IMG/VR virus record: IMGVR_UViG_3300030019_000026
DNA: 64,000 bases
Origin: a virus
Direction: 5' to 3' (one strand)
The notes beneath the pieces were generated by a model, which searched no databases, was not told the DNA's origin, and worked only from the letters and a program-made list of their open reading frames with translations. A program made the translations under genes and the position numbers. Below are positions 15,983 through 60,040 of this stretch, piece after piece. Every line of letters begins with the position of its first letter. The first letter of the stretch is position 1.

Positions 15983-16060
15983 TTTATAAAAAAAGAATTG
16001 ATTTGAAATAAATTAAAGAAAATAATATTTGACATTTACATATAAAAGGAGTAATATATA

Positions 16061-16170
16061 AGTAAGGGATAGTTTAGACTGATCATCTAAATAAAAGACG
16101 TTTTAATCAACCTACGTTTTCCCTTATTCGTAAATAGGTTGATAATAAATTAAACAAGAAAGGTTGATTT
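16061..16170 (+). ncRNA. Structured three-way-junction 5' leader (copy A)
   Basis: P1 16061-69/16120-28; P2 loop CTGATCA; P3 loop complementary to 16136-43 and 16161-69. Promoter TTGACA(16030)-17-TAATAT. Confidence 0.6.
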
Positions 16171-16174
16171 AAAA

Positions 16175-17581
16175 ATGAAAGAAAAAACAGAAATAGTAAA
16201 AAAGGAATTATCATTAGAATACCTACCACATAGAGGTAAGTTAATTAACTGGAAAGAATTAGTAGGTAAATTTGTACATTTTGTATATGGAGACATTGAG
16301 GGATTTATTGAGATTGTAGAATATTATATAGAAGAAAATAAAATTAAAACAAGATATAAAGACATAGAATATATAACAACAACTAGTAATTTTCAAAAAA
16401 TAAAAATCTCGAATTGTTTAGGGATAAAAAGAAAAAACAGTAAAAAAGTAGGGTTTGAATATAATGTAGGGGATATTATAACCACCAATAATGGTAAAAT
16501 TAAAATAATAAAACAAATTAGAGTTGGAGAAAAAAATATAAGAAGTTATGAGTATAAGTGCTTAATAGATGGAGATATAGATACCATAAGAGAATATGAT
16601 TTAATTAAAGGTTGTGGTTGTAAAGTTTGTTCAAATCATAAAGTAGTGAAAGGTATAAATGACATTGCAACTACTCACCCATATTTAGTGAAGTATTTCA
16701 AAAACATAGAAGATACTTATACTCATTCATACGGAAGTAAAGATAATTTTATATTCAAATGTCCAGACTGTGGTTGCGAAAAAGAAATGATAATAGTATT
16801 TTTTATTAAGCAAAATTATTGTTGTCCTAAATGCAGTGATGGAATTTCTGTGGCACAAAAGATAATGTTTAATATTTTTGAACAGTTAAACGTAGATTTT
16901 ATAACTGAATATAATCCTGATTGGATTAAACCTAGAAGGTATGATTTTTACTTTAAAATACAAGATAAAAAATACATACTTGAAACAGATGGTGGTTGGC
17001 ATATAAAAGATAATAATAGAAGTGGACAAACCAAGGAAAAATCTAAGTCAATAGATGATTATAAGGATGAGCAAGCTGTTTTAAATGGTATTGAAAAACC
17101 AATTAGAATAGATTGTAATTATGGAAGTAAGGATAGATTTGAATATATCAGACAAAATATATTAAATAGTAAAAAACTAAATAAATTATTTGATTTAAGT
17201 AAAATTGATTGGAATAAATGTTTTGATTTTTCATTATCATCAAGAATAAAAGAAGCTTGTGAATATAAGAAAAATAATCCTAATATGGCTACTGGTGATA
17301 TAAGTAAAATAATGAAATTATCACAAAGTAGTATAACAAATTTTCTCAAAGTGGGAAATGAAATGGGTTTATGTTATTATGACACTAAAGAAGAAATTAA
17401 AAAAAGTGGAAAGATAAATAGTAAAAAAGTTATTTGTTTAGATGATGGATTGATTTTTGATTCAGCTAGAGAAGCAGGACGATTTTATAAATGTCATGGA
17501 AACAAAGTTTCAGCAGTATGTCGTGGAGAAAGACAGTCTACTGGAGAGCGACATTTTTCATATAATAACATAACCAAATAA
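16175..17581 (+). CDS. Free-standing homing-endonuclease-like protein (Zn-ribbon + PD-(D/E)xK/DUF559-like + NUMOD1-type HTH)
   Basis: CKVC...GINDIATTHP, CPDCG, CPKC; YDFY...ILETDGGWH; C-terminal FDSAREA...VSAVCRG. Confidence 0.7.
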   Translation: MKEKTEIVKKELSLEYLPHRGKLINWKELVGKFVHFVYGDIEGFIEIVEYYIEENKIKTRYKDIEYITTTSNFQKIKISNCLGIKRKNSKKVGFEYNVGDIITTNNGKIKIIKQIRVGEKNIRSYEYKCLIDGDIDTIREYDLIKGCGCKVCSNHKVVKGINDIATTHPYLVKYFKNIEDTYTHSYGSKDNFIFKCPDCGCEKEMIIVFFIKQNYCCPKCSDGISVAQKIMFNIFEQLNVDFITEYNPDWIKPRRYDFYFKIQDKKYILETDGGWHIKDNNRSGQTKEKSKSIDDYKDEQAVLNGIEKPIRIDCNYGSKDRFEYIRQNILNSKKLNKLFDLSKIDWNKCFDFSLSSRIKEACEYKKNNPNMATGDISKIMKLSQSSITNFLKVGNEMGLCYYDTKEEIKKSGKINSKKVICLDDGLIFDSAREAGRFYKCHGNKVSAVCRGERQSTGERHFSYNNITK

Positions 17582-27203: not shown

Positions 27204-27349
27204 TAAGACATTTGAGAAGGATTAGATTAGAAATGATTTAGTTCTTCTTTTTTATTAAAACAAATTAATAAAATATTGATAACTATACTATTATATGTTA
27301 TTATAGTTATATAAGTTCTAAGAGGTATCTTTAAAAGCCCCTTTCAAAT

Positions 27350-27460
27350 ATAGAGACACATTGAGGAGTCATGACCTTAATTAAATAGCTTATCTCAATC
27401 GGCTATGTCTCTATTTTTATTAATGATTGAGAAATAAATTATAGAAAGAAGATTGAGAAA
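27350..27460 (+). ncRNA. Structured three-way-junction 5' leader (copy B)
   Basis: P1 ATAGAGACA/TGTCTCTAT; P2 loop AGTCATGA; P3 loop TATCTCAATC complementary to GATTGAGA at 27425 and 27451. Confidence 0.6.
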
Positions 27461-27461
27461 T

Positions 27462-28466
27462 ATGAAAAAGACAATAGTAGATTATGATGAAACTTTATGG
27501 ATGATACCATACTTTCAAGGTGGGTATGACGAAGCTAAAAAGTATACTCCACATACTTCAAAGAGAGTTAATTTTAAATGTCCTATTTGCGGAAGAGTAA
27601 AAGAGAAATCCACTACAATAAATAGTTTATGTAATACTCATTCAATAGGCTGTATTTGTAATGATGGAATCCCATATACTGAAAAAGTAATATTTAACAT
27701 TTTGGAGCAATTAAAAACTGATTTTATATATCAATTCAAAAAAATAAATGATTTATGGTGTGAAAACAAAATATATGATTTTTGTTTTGGACTAGATGGA
27801 GAAAGATATATTATAGAAACTCATGGAATTCAACATTACGTACAAACTAATAGAAAAAATGCAAAAACATTAGAGGAAGAGCAAGAAAATGACATAATTA
27901 AAAAAGAACTTGCTCTAGCAAACGGAATTAAAAAAGAAAATTATATAGTAATTGATTGTAGATACTCAGATTTAGAGTTTATAAAACGCAATGTATTAGA
28001 CAGTAATTTGGCTACTATTTTTGATTTAAGTAAGATTGATTGGAATAAAGTAGAAGAGTTTGCATTATCAAATCTAGTAAAAGAAATATGTGTTTATTGG
28101 AATGATAATGGTATTACAATGAATGAAATTGCAGTAATGTTTAATTTATGTCCAACTACGGTGTCTAGATATATAAGTAAAGGAATAAAATTGAATTGGG
28201 TGAATAAAATAGAATTCATAAATAATAAAGATTATTCAATGAAATTAGCACAGAAATATGCAAAACAATGTAATTCTAAGCAATTAAAAGTGTTCAAAGA
28301 TGGAGTATATTTAGGTAAATTTAACTCAACTAGGGAACTAGAAAGAATATCATTAGAAAAATTCGGTGTTAATTTTAATCATAGTGAAGTATCTAAAGTA
28401 TGTAAAGGTAAATATAGACAATATAAAGGCTATACATTTGAGTATGTAGAAAAAGAAGCATGTTAA
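27462..28466 (+). CDS. Free-standing homing-endonuclease-like protein (paralogue of 16175 and 58202)
   Basis: FKCPICG, CICNDG, IYDF...YIIETHGIQH, IVIDCR, C-terminal NUMOD1-like EVSKVCKGK..YKGYTF. ATG at 27462 preferred over TTG at 27453. Confidence 0.7.
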   Translation: MKKTIVDYDETLWMIPYFQGGYDEAKKYTPHTSKRVNFKCPICGRVKEKSTTINSLCNTHSIGCICNDGIPYTEKVIFNILEQLKTDFIYQFKKINDLWCENKIYDFCFGLDGERYIIETHGIQHYVQTNRKNAKTLEEEQENDIIKKELALANGIKKENYIVIDCRYSDLEFIKRNVLDSNLATIFDLSKIDWNKVEEFALSNLVKEICVYWNDNGITMNEIAVMFNLCPTTVSRYISKGIKLNWVNKIEFINNKDYSMKLAQKYAKQCNSKQLKVFKDGVYLGKFNSTRELERISLEKFGVNFNHSEVSKVCKGKYRQYKGYTFEYVEKEAC

Positions 28467-30107: not shown

Positions 30108-30190
30108 AATTGCATAGAAGTAGAAAATGGTTCTCTACAGACTCGAAAGAGTATCTCAGATGATGGATACACCGACCATCCTATGCAATT
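30108..30190 (+). ncRNA. 83-nt four-way-junction (cloverleaf-like) structured RNA candidate
   Basis: Perfect 10-bp closing stem AATTGCATAG/CTATGCAATT enclosing three hairpins, one with a GAAA tetraloop. Confidence 0.55.
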
Positions 30191-58040: not shown

Positions 58041-58079
58041 AGTTGATTATAATTTGCTCTTATGAGTGTTATAATATAT

Positions 58080-58200
58080 ATAGGAACAAGTTAGTTAATG
58101 GGGTTGCAAACCTGTTAATTTAATTAAAGGAGATTTTACTAACCGTCTCCGTTCCTATTTTTTAATATGGTTAGTAAATAAATTAAAGCGAGGTTAGTGT
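58080..58200 (+). ncRNA. Structured three-way-junction 5' leader (copy C)
   Basis: P1 ATAGGAAC/GTTCCTAT; P2 loop GTTGCAAA; P3 GGAGAT/GTCTCC with loop TTTACTAACC complementary to 58169-78 and 58192-98. Confidence 0.6.
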
Positions 58201-58201
58201 T

Positions 58202-60040
58202 ATGAGCAATGAAGAATATCATAGAATTATAGAAAAATTCAAAGATGAAAATAAGGAATTAATTGAAAGTGGTAAATATAAAAAAATGTTTACTGAGAAT
58301 TTACCAAAATGGAATAATGGGTGTTATATAGGTAAAATAAATTGGGAAAAAAGTATTGGATATAAAGTATTTTTTATATACGATAATTTAATAGGATGGA
58401 TAAATATTATTAAATATATTAAAGGAAAACAGCCAAAAGTAAAAATTTTATACAAAAGTAAGGAAGCTATGTTATTAACAAGTTGCTTTAGTAATTGCAT
58501 AATAGGTGAGATACTAGGAAAGAAAACAAAAGATTTTAAAATAGAAATCGGAACTCATTATAAAGATAGTCAAAGGGATATAACTATTACGGATATGAAG
58601 AGAGAACAAAATGAAAATGGTAAATGGAGTAAATTATATAAATACACTTGCAATGTTTGTGGGTTTGACTGTGGAGAACACTACTATCCTAGAGATAAAA
58701 AATACAAAGACGAATTATGGATAGGGGAAAGTAATTTATTAAAACATAAACAAGGTTGTTCGTGTTGTCATAGTGTTATAGTAGTAAATGGAATAAACGA
58801 CGTTATAACAACCGATCCTTGGATGATACCATATATAGGTAAAGAATGTGCTAAGACTCATACGCATGGGAGTAATGACAAAGTTCAAGTAACTTGCACT
58901 GACTGCGGAAGAATTAGAGATAAGAAAATAGAAATAAATAAGATATACACTTACAAATCTATCGGGTGTTCTTGTAGCGATTCAGTTAGTTACCCAAACA
59001 AAATCGCATATTCTTTACTAGAACAATTAAATCAAATATATAAGTTTGATTATTTAGAACATGAATATTCGCCTGAATGGATAGGATTAAAAAGATATGA
59101 TAATTATTTTATTTATCAAAAAAAACAATATATACTTGAAATGGATGGCAAGTGGCATTCTAAAGACAATAAAATGAGTGGACAAACCAAATATAAATCC
59201 AAAGCTATAGATGATTATAAAGATGAACAAGCTAGATTACATGGTATTGAAGTTATTAGAATTGATTGTACGATAAGCGATTTAAATTTTATTAAACAAA
59301 ACGTATTGAGTAACAATAATATAAATAATTTATTTGATTTACGCAAAATAGATTGGCAAAAGTGTGAAGATTTTGCTTTATCTAACTTAGTCAAAGTGGT
59401 TTGTGAATACAAAAGAAACAATTCTAATATAACTGCTTTTAAAATTGCAAAAATAATGAAATTATCTCAAGGAACAATAAGAACCTATCTCAAAAAAGGC
59501 AGAGAATTATATTGGTGTGATTATGATGCTAAAGAAGAGCAAAGAAAGAGTATAGAAAAATATAGATTAGATAAAAGTAAAGAAGTAAAAATATTTAAAG
59601 ACGGAGTTTATTTAGGGAAATTTATTTCATGTTCAGATTTAGCTAGAAAGTCAGAAAAATTATTTGGTGTTAAATTAAAAGGTGGAGGAATTATTAGAGT
59701 TTGTAATGGCAAAGCAATACATTATAAAGGATATAAATTTGAATATGCAAATATAACAGACAAGGAACATATAATTATAGAACAAAATAAGTCTATTTTA
59801 AAGACAAAACATGTTATATGTTTAAATAATAGAATTATAACATATAATGTAACACAATGTGCTAAGAATAGTTTACAATTATTTGGGATTAAAATATCAT
59901 ATTCATCAATATATAATATTTGTAATAATAAACAAAAAGAGATAAAAGGCTTTATGTTTAAATATATTCAAGATTTAACAGAAGAAGACTATATAACATA
60001 TGATATAACTAATAAGCTAAAAGAATTAAAAGCTATATAA
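58202..60040 (+). CDS. Free-standing homing-endonuclease-like protein (paralogue of 16175 and 27462)
   Basis: CNVCG, CSCC...GINDVITTDPW, CTDCG; RYDNY...ILEMDGKWH; IRIDC; NUMOD1-like C-terminus. Confidence 0.72.
   Translation: MSNEEYHRIIEKFKDENKELIESGKYKKMFTENLPKWNNGCYIGKINWEKSIGYKVFFIYDNLIGWINIIKYIKGKQPKVKILYKSKEAMLLTSCFSNCIIGEILGKKTKDFKIEIGTHYKDSQRDITITDMKREQNENGKWSKLYKYTCNVCGFDCGEHYYPRDKKYKDELWIGESNLLKHKQGCSCCHSVIVVNGINDVITTDPWMIPYIGKECAKTHTHGSNDKVQVTCTDCGRIRDKKIEINKIYTYKSIGCSCSDSVSYPNKIAYSLLEQLNQIYKFDYLEHEYSPEWIGLKRYDNYFIYQKKQYILEMDGKWHSKDNKMSGQTKYKSKAIDDYKDEQARLHGIEVIRIDCTISDLNFIKQNVLSNNNINNLFDLRKIDWQKCEDFALSNLVKVVCEYKRNNSNITAFKIAKIMKLSQGTIRTYLKKGRELYWCDYDAKEEQRKSIEKYRLDKSKEVKIFKDGVYLGKFISCSDLARKSEKLFGVKLKGGGIIRVCNGKAIHYKGYKFEYANITDKEHIIIEQNKSILKTKHVICLNNRIITYNVTQCAKNSLQLFGIKISYSSIYNICNNKQKEIKGFMFKYIQDLTEEDYITYDITNKLKELKAI

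Follow-up and report, generated by a model that had tools for sequence, protein, structure and literature searches.

Three paralogous endonuclease genes (A, B, and C) lie on one strand of the window analysed here, by which we mean the whole 64,000-nucleotide stretch of phage DNA (IMG/VR record IMGVR_UViG_3300030019_000026), and each is headed by a leader for which the original prediction had proposed a three-way-junction RNA, composed of a closing stem (P1) and two hairpins (P2 and P3). The junction, together with the coordinates and pairings given for the three leaders, was confirmed (Table 1), being the minimum-free-energy fold in three out of three. The fold-energy z-scores are weak (−1.1 to −1.7), so that energy on its own is no proof of structure, and the support is carried by comparison. 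In the 218-kb genome of this peat phage, a covariance model search gives four copies and no more, namely leaders A–C and a fourth (D) in front of a replication-protein gene; a loose descriptor scan of the AT-rich genome returns numerous three-way junctions that arise by chance, the two loop targets described below together with a model score being found only in A–D. No leader is present at the three other paralogs of the genome (190443, 130029 and 189193, minus strand), and ARAGORN makes no tRNA-like call at the leaders.

Table 1. Positions of promoters, leader elements, and genes at the three endonuclease loci of the window.
Feature	Position	Strand	Remarks
Copy A promoter, sigma-A/sigma-70-type	16029..16057	+	TTGACA-17-TAATAT; 10/12 matches
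Copy A three-way junction	16062..16127	+	Fold and covariance; model R3, 61.4 bits
Copy A P1	16062-16068 with 16121-16127	+	J12 = AUA
Copy A P2	16072-16078 with 16086-16092	+	Loop CUGAUCA; palindrome UGAUCA
Copy A P3	16095-16101 with 16114-16120	+	12-nt loop L3 (anti-ribosome-site), 16102-16113
Copy A T1	16136..16143	+	AGGTTGAT; 8 nt past P1, abuts AATAAATTA; L3 duplex −10.2 kcal/mol
Copy A gene-start motif	16144..16152	+	AATAAATTA; genome-wide, not leader-specific
Copy A T2	16161..16169	+	AGGTTGATT; overlaps Shine-Dalgarno, 5 nt before ATG at 16175; L3 duplex −10.7 kcal/mol
Endonuclease paralog A, 468 aa	16175..17581	+	PHROG phrog_4538 and phrog_9084 'homing endonuclease'; no Pfam family
Copy B promoter-like element	27276..27304	+	TTGATA-17-TATTAT with TG; about 40 nt upstream of P1
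Copy B leader	27350-27464	+	Junction 27350..27414; layout as A; model R3, 45.2 bits
Copy B P1	27350-57 with 27407-14	+	
Copy B P2	27360-66 with 27375-81	+	Loop AGUCAUGA; palindrome UCAUGA
Copy B P3	27385-90 with 27401-06	+	Loop 27391-27400
Copy B T1	27425..27432	+	GATTGAGA; complementary to L3
Copy B gene-start motif	27433..27441	+	AATAAATTA; between T1 and T2
Copy B T2	27451..27458	+	GATTGAGA; 3 nt before ATG at 27462
Endonuclease paralog B, 334 aa from ATG	27462..28466	+	
Copy C extended −10 element	58067..58075	+	TGtTATAAT; P1 begins 5 nt later; read from sequence
Copy C leader	58080-58204	+	Junction 58080..58158; layout as A; model R3, 33.5 bits
Copy C P1	58080-87 with 58151-58	+	
Copy C long P2	58093-102 with 58111-120	+	Loop GUUGCAAA; palindrome UUGCAA
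Copy C P3	58129-34 with 58145-50	+	Loop 58135-58144
Copy C T1	58169..58178	+	GGTTAGTAAA; 10/10 complementary to L3; overlaps AATAAATTA (58177-58185)
Copy C T2	58192..58199	+	GGTTAGTG; last pair G-U; on Shine-Dalgarno, 2 nt before ATG at 58202
Endonuclease paralog C, 612 aa	58202..60040	+	

For the comparison, a MAFFT alignment of 11 cores (A2), whose 3′ half was out of register, was left unused, and models R1, R2, and R3 were bootstrapped instead. In 28 homologous leaders, 97% of the cells are paired and both-sided (compensatory) changes occur at 19 of the 20 pairs, with a covariation score of 0.756 versus 0.226 for shuffles and 0.04–0.16 for slid partners, these values being read from an alignment that had been fitted to the model and is biased toward the structure. 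G–U pairs recur at fixed stem positions, for example at the P2 base in 18 of the 28 leaders, which argues for an RNA of the gene strand. The expectation that the leader is a selected RNA structure is thus borne out by the covariation. The accompanying statement that the leaders have almost no primary sequence in common has to be given up, since the junctions share GGG-AUA-G, U-GA-N-AAG, and CUU-CCC, about a dozen junction nucleotides being conserved while all stems are free to vary.

Leaders A, B, and C are true copies of a folded RNA that is widespread in phages, where it precedes the genes of selfish DNA-cutting enzymes. Dozens of further copies were found with the covariance model in phage contigs of 25–55% GC, and an exact-word scan for one subtype only yielded 71 phage contigs, the majority of which the model confirmed; two low-scoring R2 matches (L098 and L099) were dropped because they lie inside coding sequence. 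The genes behind the leaders encode homing endonucleases of at least four unrelated families, besides the replication protein of copy D, and a near-identical leader serves the phrog_4538 nuclease of copy A and a GIY-YIG nuclease (L092). Among cultured phages, Megablast gave no match for 6 kb, and no leader was found in Clostridium phage vB_CpeS_BG3P, the nearest cultured relative for the nuclease, or in three Clostridia genomes holding nuclease relatives; under strict filters, one of the 151 Clostridiaceae genomes searched contains a leader. A DNA-contig joint from 16094 to 17178 in run X13 was not taken as evidence of a deletion, most likely coming from a relative whose leader and C-terminal domain are similar. 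In the public RNA runs that contain this phage, it is represented by assembled contigs only, and with a tiny share.

Judged from sequence and predicted fold, the leader family is a long-P2, AT-tolerant, uncatalogued sister of the orphan Rfam motif int-alpA (RF02996). Searches of Rfam at gathering scores and at permissive E-values, covering the window, copies A–D, and 17 related loci, placed no family at the leaders, including the C4 and RAGATH families in which membership had been considered. RF02996 itself (gathering score, 35.8 bits) gave no match in the window at gathering, on copy A, or at the leaders of the 17 related loci, nor on A–D even at E-values up to 10 in 399 bases; the same search finds canonical int-alpA copies elsewhere in those related phages. 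The likeness lies in the succession of closing stem, UA(G), P2, GA-AAAG, P3 with a CCU-containing loop, CU(U), and closing stem, followed by a U-rich tract (U7 after an 8-bp GC stem in the int-alpA consensus) and, further 3′, by an element complementary to the P3 loop. The junction joints UA(G), GA-AAAG, and CU(U) of RF02996 are present in 28–30 leaders, a bona fide int-alpA copy falls in register when aligned by model R3 (24 bits), and the canonical int-alpA copies of related phage contigs agree with the leaders in promoter placement, in the pair of loop targets, and in having homing-endonuclease genes behind them. In contrast, P2 of the leaders has 5–10 bp and a 7–10-nt loop with a palindromic hexamer, whereas that of int-alpA has 3–4 bp and a 5-nt loop, and the stems of these leaders are AT-rich. 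By this relationship, the int-alpA family is much larger than the Rfam model detects. On the question raised in the original prediction of whether the motif is an already described Rfam family with a known function, the leaders do represent a divergent form of RF02996, but RF02996 is a candidate structured RNA (Rfam type 'sRNA') without known function. No published function for int-alpA was found in the literature searched, and the motif is unnamed in the main text of Weinberg et al. 2017 (PMC5737381).

The loop of P3 (L3) had been proposed to be an antisense element for two downstream sites, including one at the ribosome-binding region, and the wider comparison supports this. The proximal site (T1) follows the U-rich tract, and the distal site (T2) always lies on the Shine–Dalgarno sequence or the AUG, overlapping the latter in L154. 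Predicted L3 duplexes with both sites have about −8 to −11 kcal/mol in 58 leaders, and loops matched with their own targets give 17.7 for the best and 15.9 for the second site, as against 12.7 and 10.9 with the downstream regions of other leaders. Moreover, L3, T1, and T2 change together, as seen in the triple compensatory change between C and L090. The comparison of loops and targets shows L3 to be tailored, at the level of predicted pairing, to the translation-initiation region of the downstream gene itself.

The P2 loop carries a self-complementary hexamer in 28 of 30 leaders, versus 10.6% expected by chance. Seven types are found (UCAUGA, UGAUCA, UAAUUA, UAGCUA, UUGCAA, UUAUAA, and UCGCGA, one coming from the Clostridiaceae copy), which differ from one another through symmetric substitutions, either of positions 2/5 or of positions 3/4, the latter two being adjacent and unable to pair inside a single loop. 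The palindromic loop, with a nearest-neighbour duplex energy of −5.2 to −6.6 kcal/mol, points to a putative loop–loop pairing between two copies of the RNA, and its maintenance through symmetric changes supports the kissing-dimer signal suggested earlier. The dimer initiation site (DIS) hairpin of HIV-1 is a kissing-loop dimerisation signal, and the two have in common a 6-nt self-complementary loop core, mostly with purines on the 5′ side, kept by symmetric double substitutions; they differ in that the present RNA is a phage mRNA leader, in that the dimer is only predicted, and in that some members are devoid of a palindrome. The palindrome is absent from two long-P2 leaders (L095 and L097, of which L097 alone has the canonical UCGCU loop), and the P2 loop of canonical int-alpA copies is often the non-palindromic UCGCU; the basic mechanism must therefore be able to work without kissing. 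Within a genome, the loops are no more unlike one another than chance would make them, 3 of 17 pairs being alike versus about 0.24 expected (counted by hand), which gives no support to orthogonal kissing loops.

Consensus promoters end 5–8 nt before P1 in copies A and C and in L009, L048, L050, L081, L083, L086, L090, L091, L096, and L097; that of copy A puts the transcript start at about 16063–16065, the 5′ end of P1. The element of copy C was left unscored in the promoter scan, having no −35 element at a distance of 16–18 nt. Directly after the closing stem, a U-rich tract with at least 7 U in 12 positions is found in 20 of 30 leaders, compared with 6% of control windows. A simple terminator scan gave none at the three sites (A, B, and C) because their loops and branches fall outside its rule, and the branched leader structure is not a classical intrinsic terminator. 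The sequence ATAAATTA between T1 and T2, previously counted as part of the leader, is instead a genome-wide gene-start signal (50 copies in the window versus 15.6 expected; 182 genome-wide). The motif AATAAATTA lies between T1 and T2 in all four genome copies and in close relatives, and its core is the T4-late-like ATAAAT without a −35 element; it is probably a promoter read with a phage sigma factor, and the phage genome encodes a sigma-70-family protein.

On balance, we are inclined to regard the leader as the 5′-terminal domain of a separately promoted transcript of a free-standing selfish gene, belonging to a widespread sister family of int-alpA and acting as a programmable translational brake. 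Its function is most likely that of a brake and possibly that of dosage sensing. In the predicted mechanism, L3 would pair either with T1, being 'parked' so that the start site is free, or with T2, so that the start site is masked. The closing stem and the U-tract may terminate some transcripts to yield a short RNA of about 65–80 nt with L3 free, and in the read-through mRNA L3 would be parked in cis on T1. Short RNAs or other copies of the leader may dock on the mRNA leader by P2–P2 kissing, which is possible between copies only because the P2 loop is self-complementary; the free L3 of the docked RNA would then mask T2, and nuclease synthesis would be curbed as templates multiply and transcripts accumulate. 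The second, probably phage-sigma-dependent promoter signal AATAAATTA would give transcripts without the junction, as in T4 e and I-TevI. Weighing against the brake, T1 equals or surpasses T2 as a partner of L3 in 35 of 58 leaders, so that pairing in cis alone would leave the start site mostly free, and control may run in either direction, as a brake or as an activator or stabiliser. It is a tentative and rather doubtful extension of this scheme that the system forms an RNA-only, reprogrammable dosage governor, in which one promoter yields both a short, terminated junction RNA and a read-through mRNA, and the short RNA kisses the mRNA, whose own L3 is parked on the decoy T1, and masks T2, keeping expression low and roughly constant during genome amplification; if true, this would give the orphan motif int-alpA its function.

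The analogy to P1 c4 and P4 CI drawn at the outset is apt as a working model, since there, too, one antisense element has two targets in the same transcript, as in the P4 CI RNA (seqA/seqC), and IsrK of Gifsy-1 illustrates how a single promoter can give rise to a short and a read-through isoform, the former acting on the latter (PMC4825925). A further likeness to CI, which controls the P4 replication genes, is that copy D heads a replication gene. The present leaders differ from C4 (RF01695; P1/P7 c4) in showing no sequence or model match and in having both targets downstream, and from C4 and CI in that the expected effect is on translation initiation and not on termination, RNase P processing not being indicated. 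Altogether, the selected structure, the two-site antisense loop, the kissing signal, and the c4/CI analogy of the original interpretation stand, whereas its nuclease-partner RNA, the C4/RAGATH membership, and ATAAATTA as a leader element do not.

The proposed translational brake offers a testable function for int-alpA. A portable cassette of promoter, leader, and start site, common to free-standing homing endonucleases with unrelated folds, may keep these enzymes harmless; its specificity could be rewritten by altering one loop and its two targets, and orthogonal translational repressors could naturally be modelled on this loop/target design. Regulated homodimerisation of RNA, of which the self-complementary loop would be an example, is rare in bacteria and phages.

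A purely cis-acting timing device of the T4 type would have early host-polymerase transcripts masked by L3 and later AATAAATTA transcripts, devoid of the junction, translated, T1 and the palindrome being accessory. Ribosome-binding sites of phage homing-endonuclease genes can be sequestered, with a late promoter beside them, which is a precedent for the brake as well, and sequestering leaders occur in T4 e, soc, 49, I-TevI, and segB and in Aeh1 mobE, the precedent being established for e, I-TevI, mobE, and segB (PMC3014915). In both systems homing-endonuclease or late genes have a Shine–Dalgarno sequence or AUG complementary to upstream RNA of long transcripts, a complementarity that is seen here within the same transcript and with covariation, as far as predicted pairing tells. 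Unmasked transcripts arise in the T4-type system from a single-element late promoter (TATAAATA) by the ribosome site, and the position of AATAAATTA between the targets, its T4-late-like core, and the phage sigma-70-family gene would all suit such timing. However, T4-type leaders are simple local hairpins, whereas the masking strand here lies far upstream, in a hairpin loop of a conserved three-way junction, and a second target copy and a self-complementary loop are found only in the present leaders. Both targets are kept in many relatives in which they are adjacent, 9–15 nt apart, leaving too little space for a promoter (L158, L164, L084, and L095), so that the promoter cannot be the reason for T1. 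With the palindromic loop and the co-variation of T1 left without a role, we consider it unlikely that timing in cis is the whole explanation.

The junction might instead be a sensor, that is, a riboswitch or a protein platform, in which binding of a ligand or protein sets L3 on T1 or T2. Conserved junction nucleotides amid variable stems are typical of a binding pocket, and two mutually exclusive, equally strong partners have the look of an expression platform, but the non-metabolic gene context, the lack of an apparent ligand candidate, and the small size of the junction make this improbable. A 5′ stabiliser or translation enhancer, in which an L3:T1 pseudoknot hides an upstream decoy Shine–Dalgarno sequence and blocks 5′-exonuclease to raise expression, would agree with T1 being so often the better partner and with the location of the structure at the extreme 5′ end. 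Firmicutes mRNAs are stabilised by 5′-terminal structures and by SD-like 'STAB-SD' elements, which may serve as a precedent. We nevertheless judge this role quite improbable, because it leaves unexplained why T2–L3 complementarity is kept by compensatory change (C versus L090), including the AUG-overlapping T2 of L154, and because selfish nucleases are usually held low and not boosted (PMC3014915).

Action at the DNA level, the three 8–10-mer copies and the palindromic hexamer being operators for a DNA-binding protein, would recall the autorepression of the I-TevI promoter by I-TevI itself (cited in PMC3014915). In this phage, a promoter-like motif stands between the repeats, and a 6-bp palindrome would suit a dimeric protein. 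However, the repeats do not track the nuclease, AGGTTGA being common to A (phrog_4538) and L092 (GIY-YIG), the inverted copy is always in a hairpin loop and T2 always on the ribosome site, and G–U pairs occur within L3:T helices (C T2, L097 T1, L095 T2, and L085 T2) as well as at fixed stem positions, which makes nuclease autorepression or the like highly improbable. The same leader serving unrelated nuclease folds and a replication gene rules out a nuclease-specific guide RNA and the partner RNA proposed earlier, and L3 matches the mRNA of its own gene and not a foreign target. A search for self-cleaving ribozymes (twister, hammerhead, pistol, hatchet, and others) gave no family match at the leaders, whose junction bases are unlike the hammerhead core. 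Hence, we give very little credence to a ribozyme or guide RNA, the observation on its side being that L043, a different leader heading an endonuclease relative, contains at the same 5′ position a twister-P1-like match (40.3 bits, E 1.5e-5, below the gathering score).

In the three leaders of the window, copies A, B and C, minimum-free-energy folding reproduced the three-way junction of the original prediction, composed of a closing stem P1 and hairpins P2 and P3, with the 3' strand of P1 directly continuing the 3' strand of P3. Taken by themselves, the fold energies (z −1.1 to −1.7) are unremarkable, and relatives were therefore sought; an IMG/VR search with the three endonuclease proteins returned 51 loci, many with a leader that shares the design while differing in sequence. 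Because MAFFT was unable to align these leaders, the covariance-model search proposed earlier was run with a model seeded with three equal-length leaders and then iterated, the final model being denoted R3. The observation made on three leaders is real and general. In the phage record containing the window (218,173 bp, 25.8% G+C; from peat metagenomes, according to public DNA runs), R3 detects four copies and no more; the fourth, copy D, lies outside the window and has loop AAGUCAUGAG, P3 loop (L3) AAAUUCCUAC and, downstream, GTAGGAA, AATAAATCA and GTAGGAAT, of which the first and last are the L3-complementary sites T1 and T2. Contigs of related phages each carry between one and four, and one of 151 Clostridiaceae genomes holds one. 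When IMG/VR was scanned for exact words of one subtype, 71 stretches were returned, about 40 of which contain 46 R3 matches, on contigs of 25–55% G+C from many samples. In copy B (window 27311–27349) and its relatives, among them L020, an additional hairpin, conserved in part, separates the promoter from P1.

Coordinates of the leaders and associated features
Feature	Coordinates	Strand	Basis or context
Three-way junction, copy A	window 16062-16127	+	minimum-free-energy structure
Three-way junction, copy B	window 27350-27414	+	minimum-free-energy structure
Three-way junction, copy C	window 58080-58158	+	minimum-free-energy structure
Copy D	genome 96024-96128 (junction 96024-96088); would be window 80543-80647	+	R3; ahead of 555-aa protein
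Three further endonuclease paralogs without three-way-junction leader	genome 190443-191393, 130029-130958, 189193-189966	minus	directly behind other genes
AATAAATTA examples	window 16007, 16144, 27433, 58177		
Sigma-70-family gene, matched segment	genome 134328-134480	minus	sigma70_r2 match
Canonical int-alpA in L158	10560-10629		
Long-P2 leader in L158	13472-13530		

In an alignment of 28 leaders, which was fitted to the covariance model and is thus biased in favour of structure, standard pairs occupy 97% of the cells, both sides change in 19 of 20 pairs, and the covariation score is 0.756, versus 0.226 for shuffles and 0.04–0.16 for slid partners. Compensatory changes in P3 are plain by eye, as in AAGGAGAG/CUCUCCUU of the relative L016 versus AAGACGAG/CUCGUCUU of L041. 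The leaders had been described as having almost no primary sequence in common; they do share the junction bases GGG-AUA-G, U-GA-N-AAG and CUU-CCC. The sigma-A-type promoters of copies A (TTGACA-17-TAATAT) and C (TGtTATAAT, read from the sequence) predict that transcription begins with the first bases of P1. After P1, a U-rich tract with at least 7 U in 12 bases is present in 20 of 30 leaders, versus 6% of control windows.

In A, B and C, the complement of L3 occurs twice downstream, as T1, 8–10 nt past P1, and as T2, on the Shine-Dalgarno sequence 2–5 nt before the ATG, with computed duplex energies of −8.6 to −11.1 kcal/mol for both alike. This complementarity of the P3 loop, as originally proposed, is borne out by the loop scores, at 17.7 for the best and 15.9 for the second site in a leader's own downstream region versus 12.7 and 10.9 in those of other leaders. 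Nearly all of 58 leaders have both sites, T2 lying on the Shine-Dalgarno sequence or, in some GIY-YIG genes (locus L154), on the AUG itself; T1 is at least as strong as T2 in 35 of the 58, and their spacing ranges from adjacent (9–15 nt) to 56 nt. Between copy C and the relative L090, two loop positions differ and T1 and T2 both show the compensatory change, indicating that both pairings are under selection.

Of 30 leaders, 28 have a self-complementary hexamer in the P2 loop, versus 10.6% of random segments of the same length. Six types (UCAUGA, UGAUCA, UAAUUA, UAGCUA, UUGCAA and UUAUAA) occur among these leaders and a seventh, UCGCGA, in the Clostridiaceae copy; all begin with U and end with A, and they differ from one another through symmetric double substitutions at positions 2/5 or 3/4. 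Positions 3 and 4, as neighbours, cannot pair within one loop; pairing between two copies of the loop predicts this pattern. The palindrome is absent from two long-P2 leaders, L095 and L097. The P2 loop of L097 is the canonical UCGCU, and that of L095 (101–163, +), GUUGUGA, repeats the sequence of its own T2 and complements its L3; an intramolecular loop–loop contact is therefore possible.

The genes behind A, B and C are paralogs with 34–44% identity to each other, matching phrog_4538 and phrog_9084 ('homing endonuclease') but no Pfam family. Besides such proteins, the leader heads GIY-YIG enzymes (L092, L094, L097 and many of the exact-word-scan loci), a T5orf172/MUG113 protein (L077) and DUF4379/phrog_559-type 'HNH' proteins (L080, L086, L091 and L085). 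The nearest Atlas clusters of the copy D product, RepB-primase, PriCT or DnaD-type replication proteins, may offer a lead only. Copy A (window 16062–16169) and L092 (1501–1563, −) have near-identical leaders and share their targets (AGGTTGA), with a phrog_4538 nuclease in one and a GIY-YIG nuclease in the other. The leader does not go with any one nuclease, and nuclease genes appear to exchange the promoter–leader–start-site cassette.

The leaders thus have a 5'-terminal structure under selection and a loop directed against the start site, for which two alternative partners exist, together with a U-tract and a second, self-complementary loop; from this we infer a translational brake on selfish genes. 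Control of translation through L3 and T1/T2 is, as a general claim, fairly probable. A detailed version is put forward because it uses every conserved part, although we regard it as rather unlikely: P1 and the U-tract would terminate a share of transcripts; the resulting short RNA would retain a free L3, whereas in the read-through mRNA the molecule's own L3 would be parked on T1; and the short RNAs would dock through P2–P2 kissing and then mask T2, giving a brake dependent on dosage or time. If the leader instead acted only in cis, there would be no role for T1 or the palindrome, and the start site is predicted to be mostly free, because T1 is the nearer and often the stronger partner.

Other rival readings make the leader a sensor, a stabiliser or a ribozyme, or its repeats DNA operators; G-U pairs are conserved in the stems, and the selected molecule is therefore RNA of the gene strand. 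Also among the rivals is a guide RNA. A small RNA partner of the nuclease, as first suggested, is contradicted by the unrelated gene classes under the leader and by the differing nuclease folds behind the shared leader of A and L092. What stands of the original interpretation is accordingly the loop–target antisense switch, with a possible dimer signal; the nuclease partner falls away, as does ATAAATTA as a part of the RNA.

The latter element belongs to a genome-wide motif, AATAAATTA, with 182 copies in the 218-kb genome and 50 in the window versus 15.6 expected. It is oriented as the genes are, usually 13–35 nt before the start codon or ~12 nt before a −35 box, with the consensus AATAAATTA-A-W-A-R-A-A and no upstream element. 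As the phage genome has a sigma-70-family gene and no RNA polymerase beta subunit was found in it, AATAAATTA is probably a promoter class read with the phage's own sigma factor, and its presence between T1 and T2 may provide a bypass of the T4 kind in this phage. Among established systems, the closest in function are leaders that sequester the RBS of T4 genes e, I-TevI and segB and of Aeh1 mobE, with a late promoter next to the RBS (PMC3014915), and P4 CI antisense RNA, in which one element has two targets, and IsrK, whose short isoform acts on the read-through isoform (PMC4825925).

In the Rfam comparison suggested with the original prediction, no Rfam 15 family matched the leaders. They are a sister form of int-alpA (RF02996), not recognised by the Rfam model: the consensus of that motif, an 8-bp closing stem, UA, a short hairpin, GAAAA-G, a CCU-loop hairpin, CU, the closing stem, a U7 tract and AAGG complementary to the loop, has the same plan and joints, whereas in the leaders P2 is long, its loop is palindromic and the stems are AT-rich. 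With R3, a bona fide int-alpA copy aligns in register (24 bits). Canonical copies share phage genomes with the long-P2 form; their promoter is placed alike, they too have the T1/T2 pair, and homing endonucleases lie behind them. int-alpA is a known but functionally orphan motif, no functional study having been found in the literature searched, and the leaders are a new form. Both forms occur in L158, a 90-kb IMG/VR phage contig with a ~25-tRNA array and a tmRNA. A full-length match to skipping-rope RNA (RF02924; 61.6 bits versus a gathering threshold of 36.7) at window 30110–30188 (+) explains a 'tRNA-sized cloverleaf' there. In L043 (1150–1207, +), and likewise in the identical L046, the 5' leader of a relative of the same endonuclease contains a twister-P1-like element (40.3 bits, E 1.5e-5; short of the gathering threshold of 67.2) at the position occupied elsewhere by the three-way junction.
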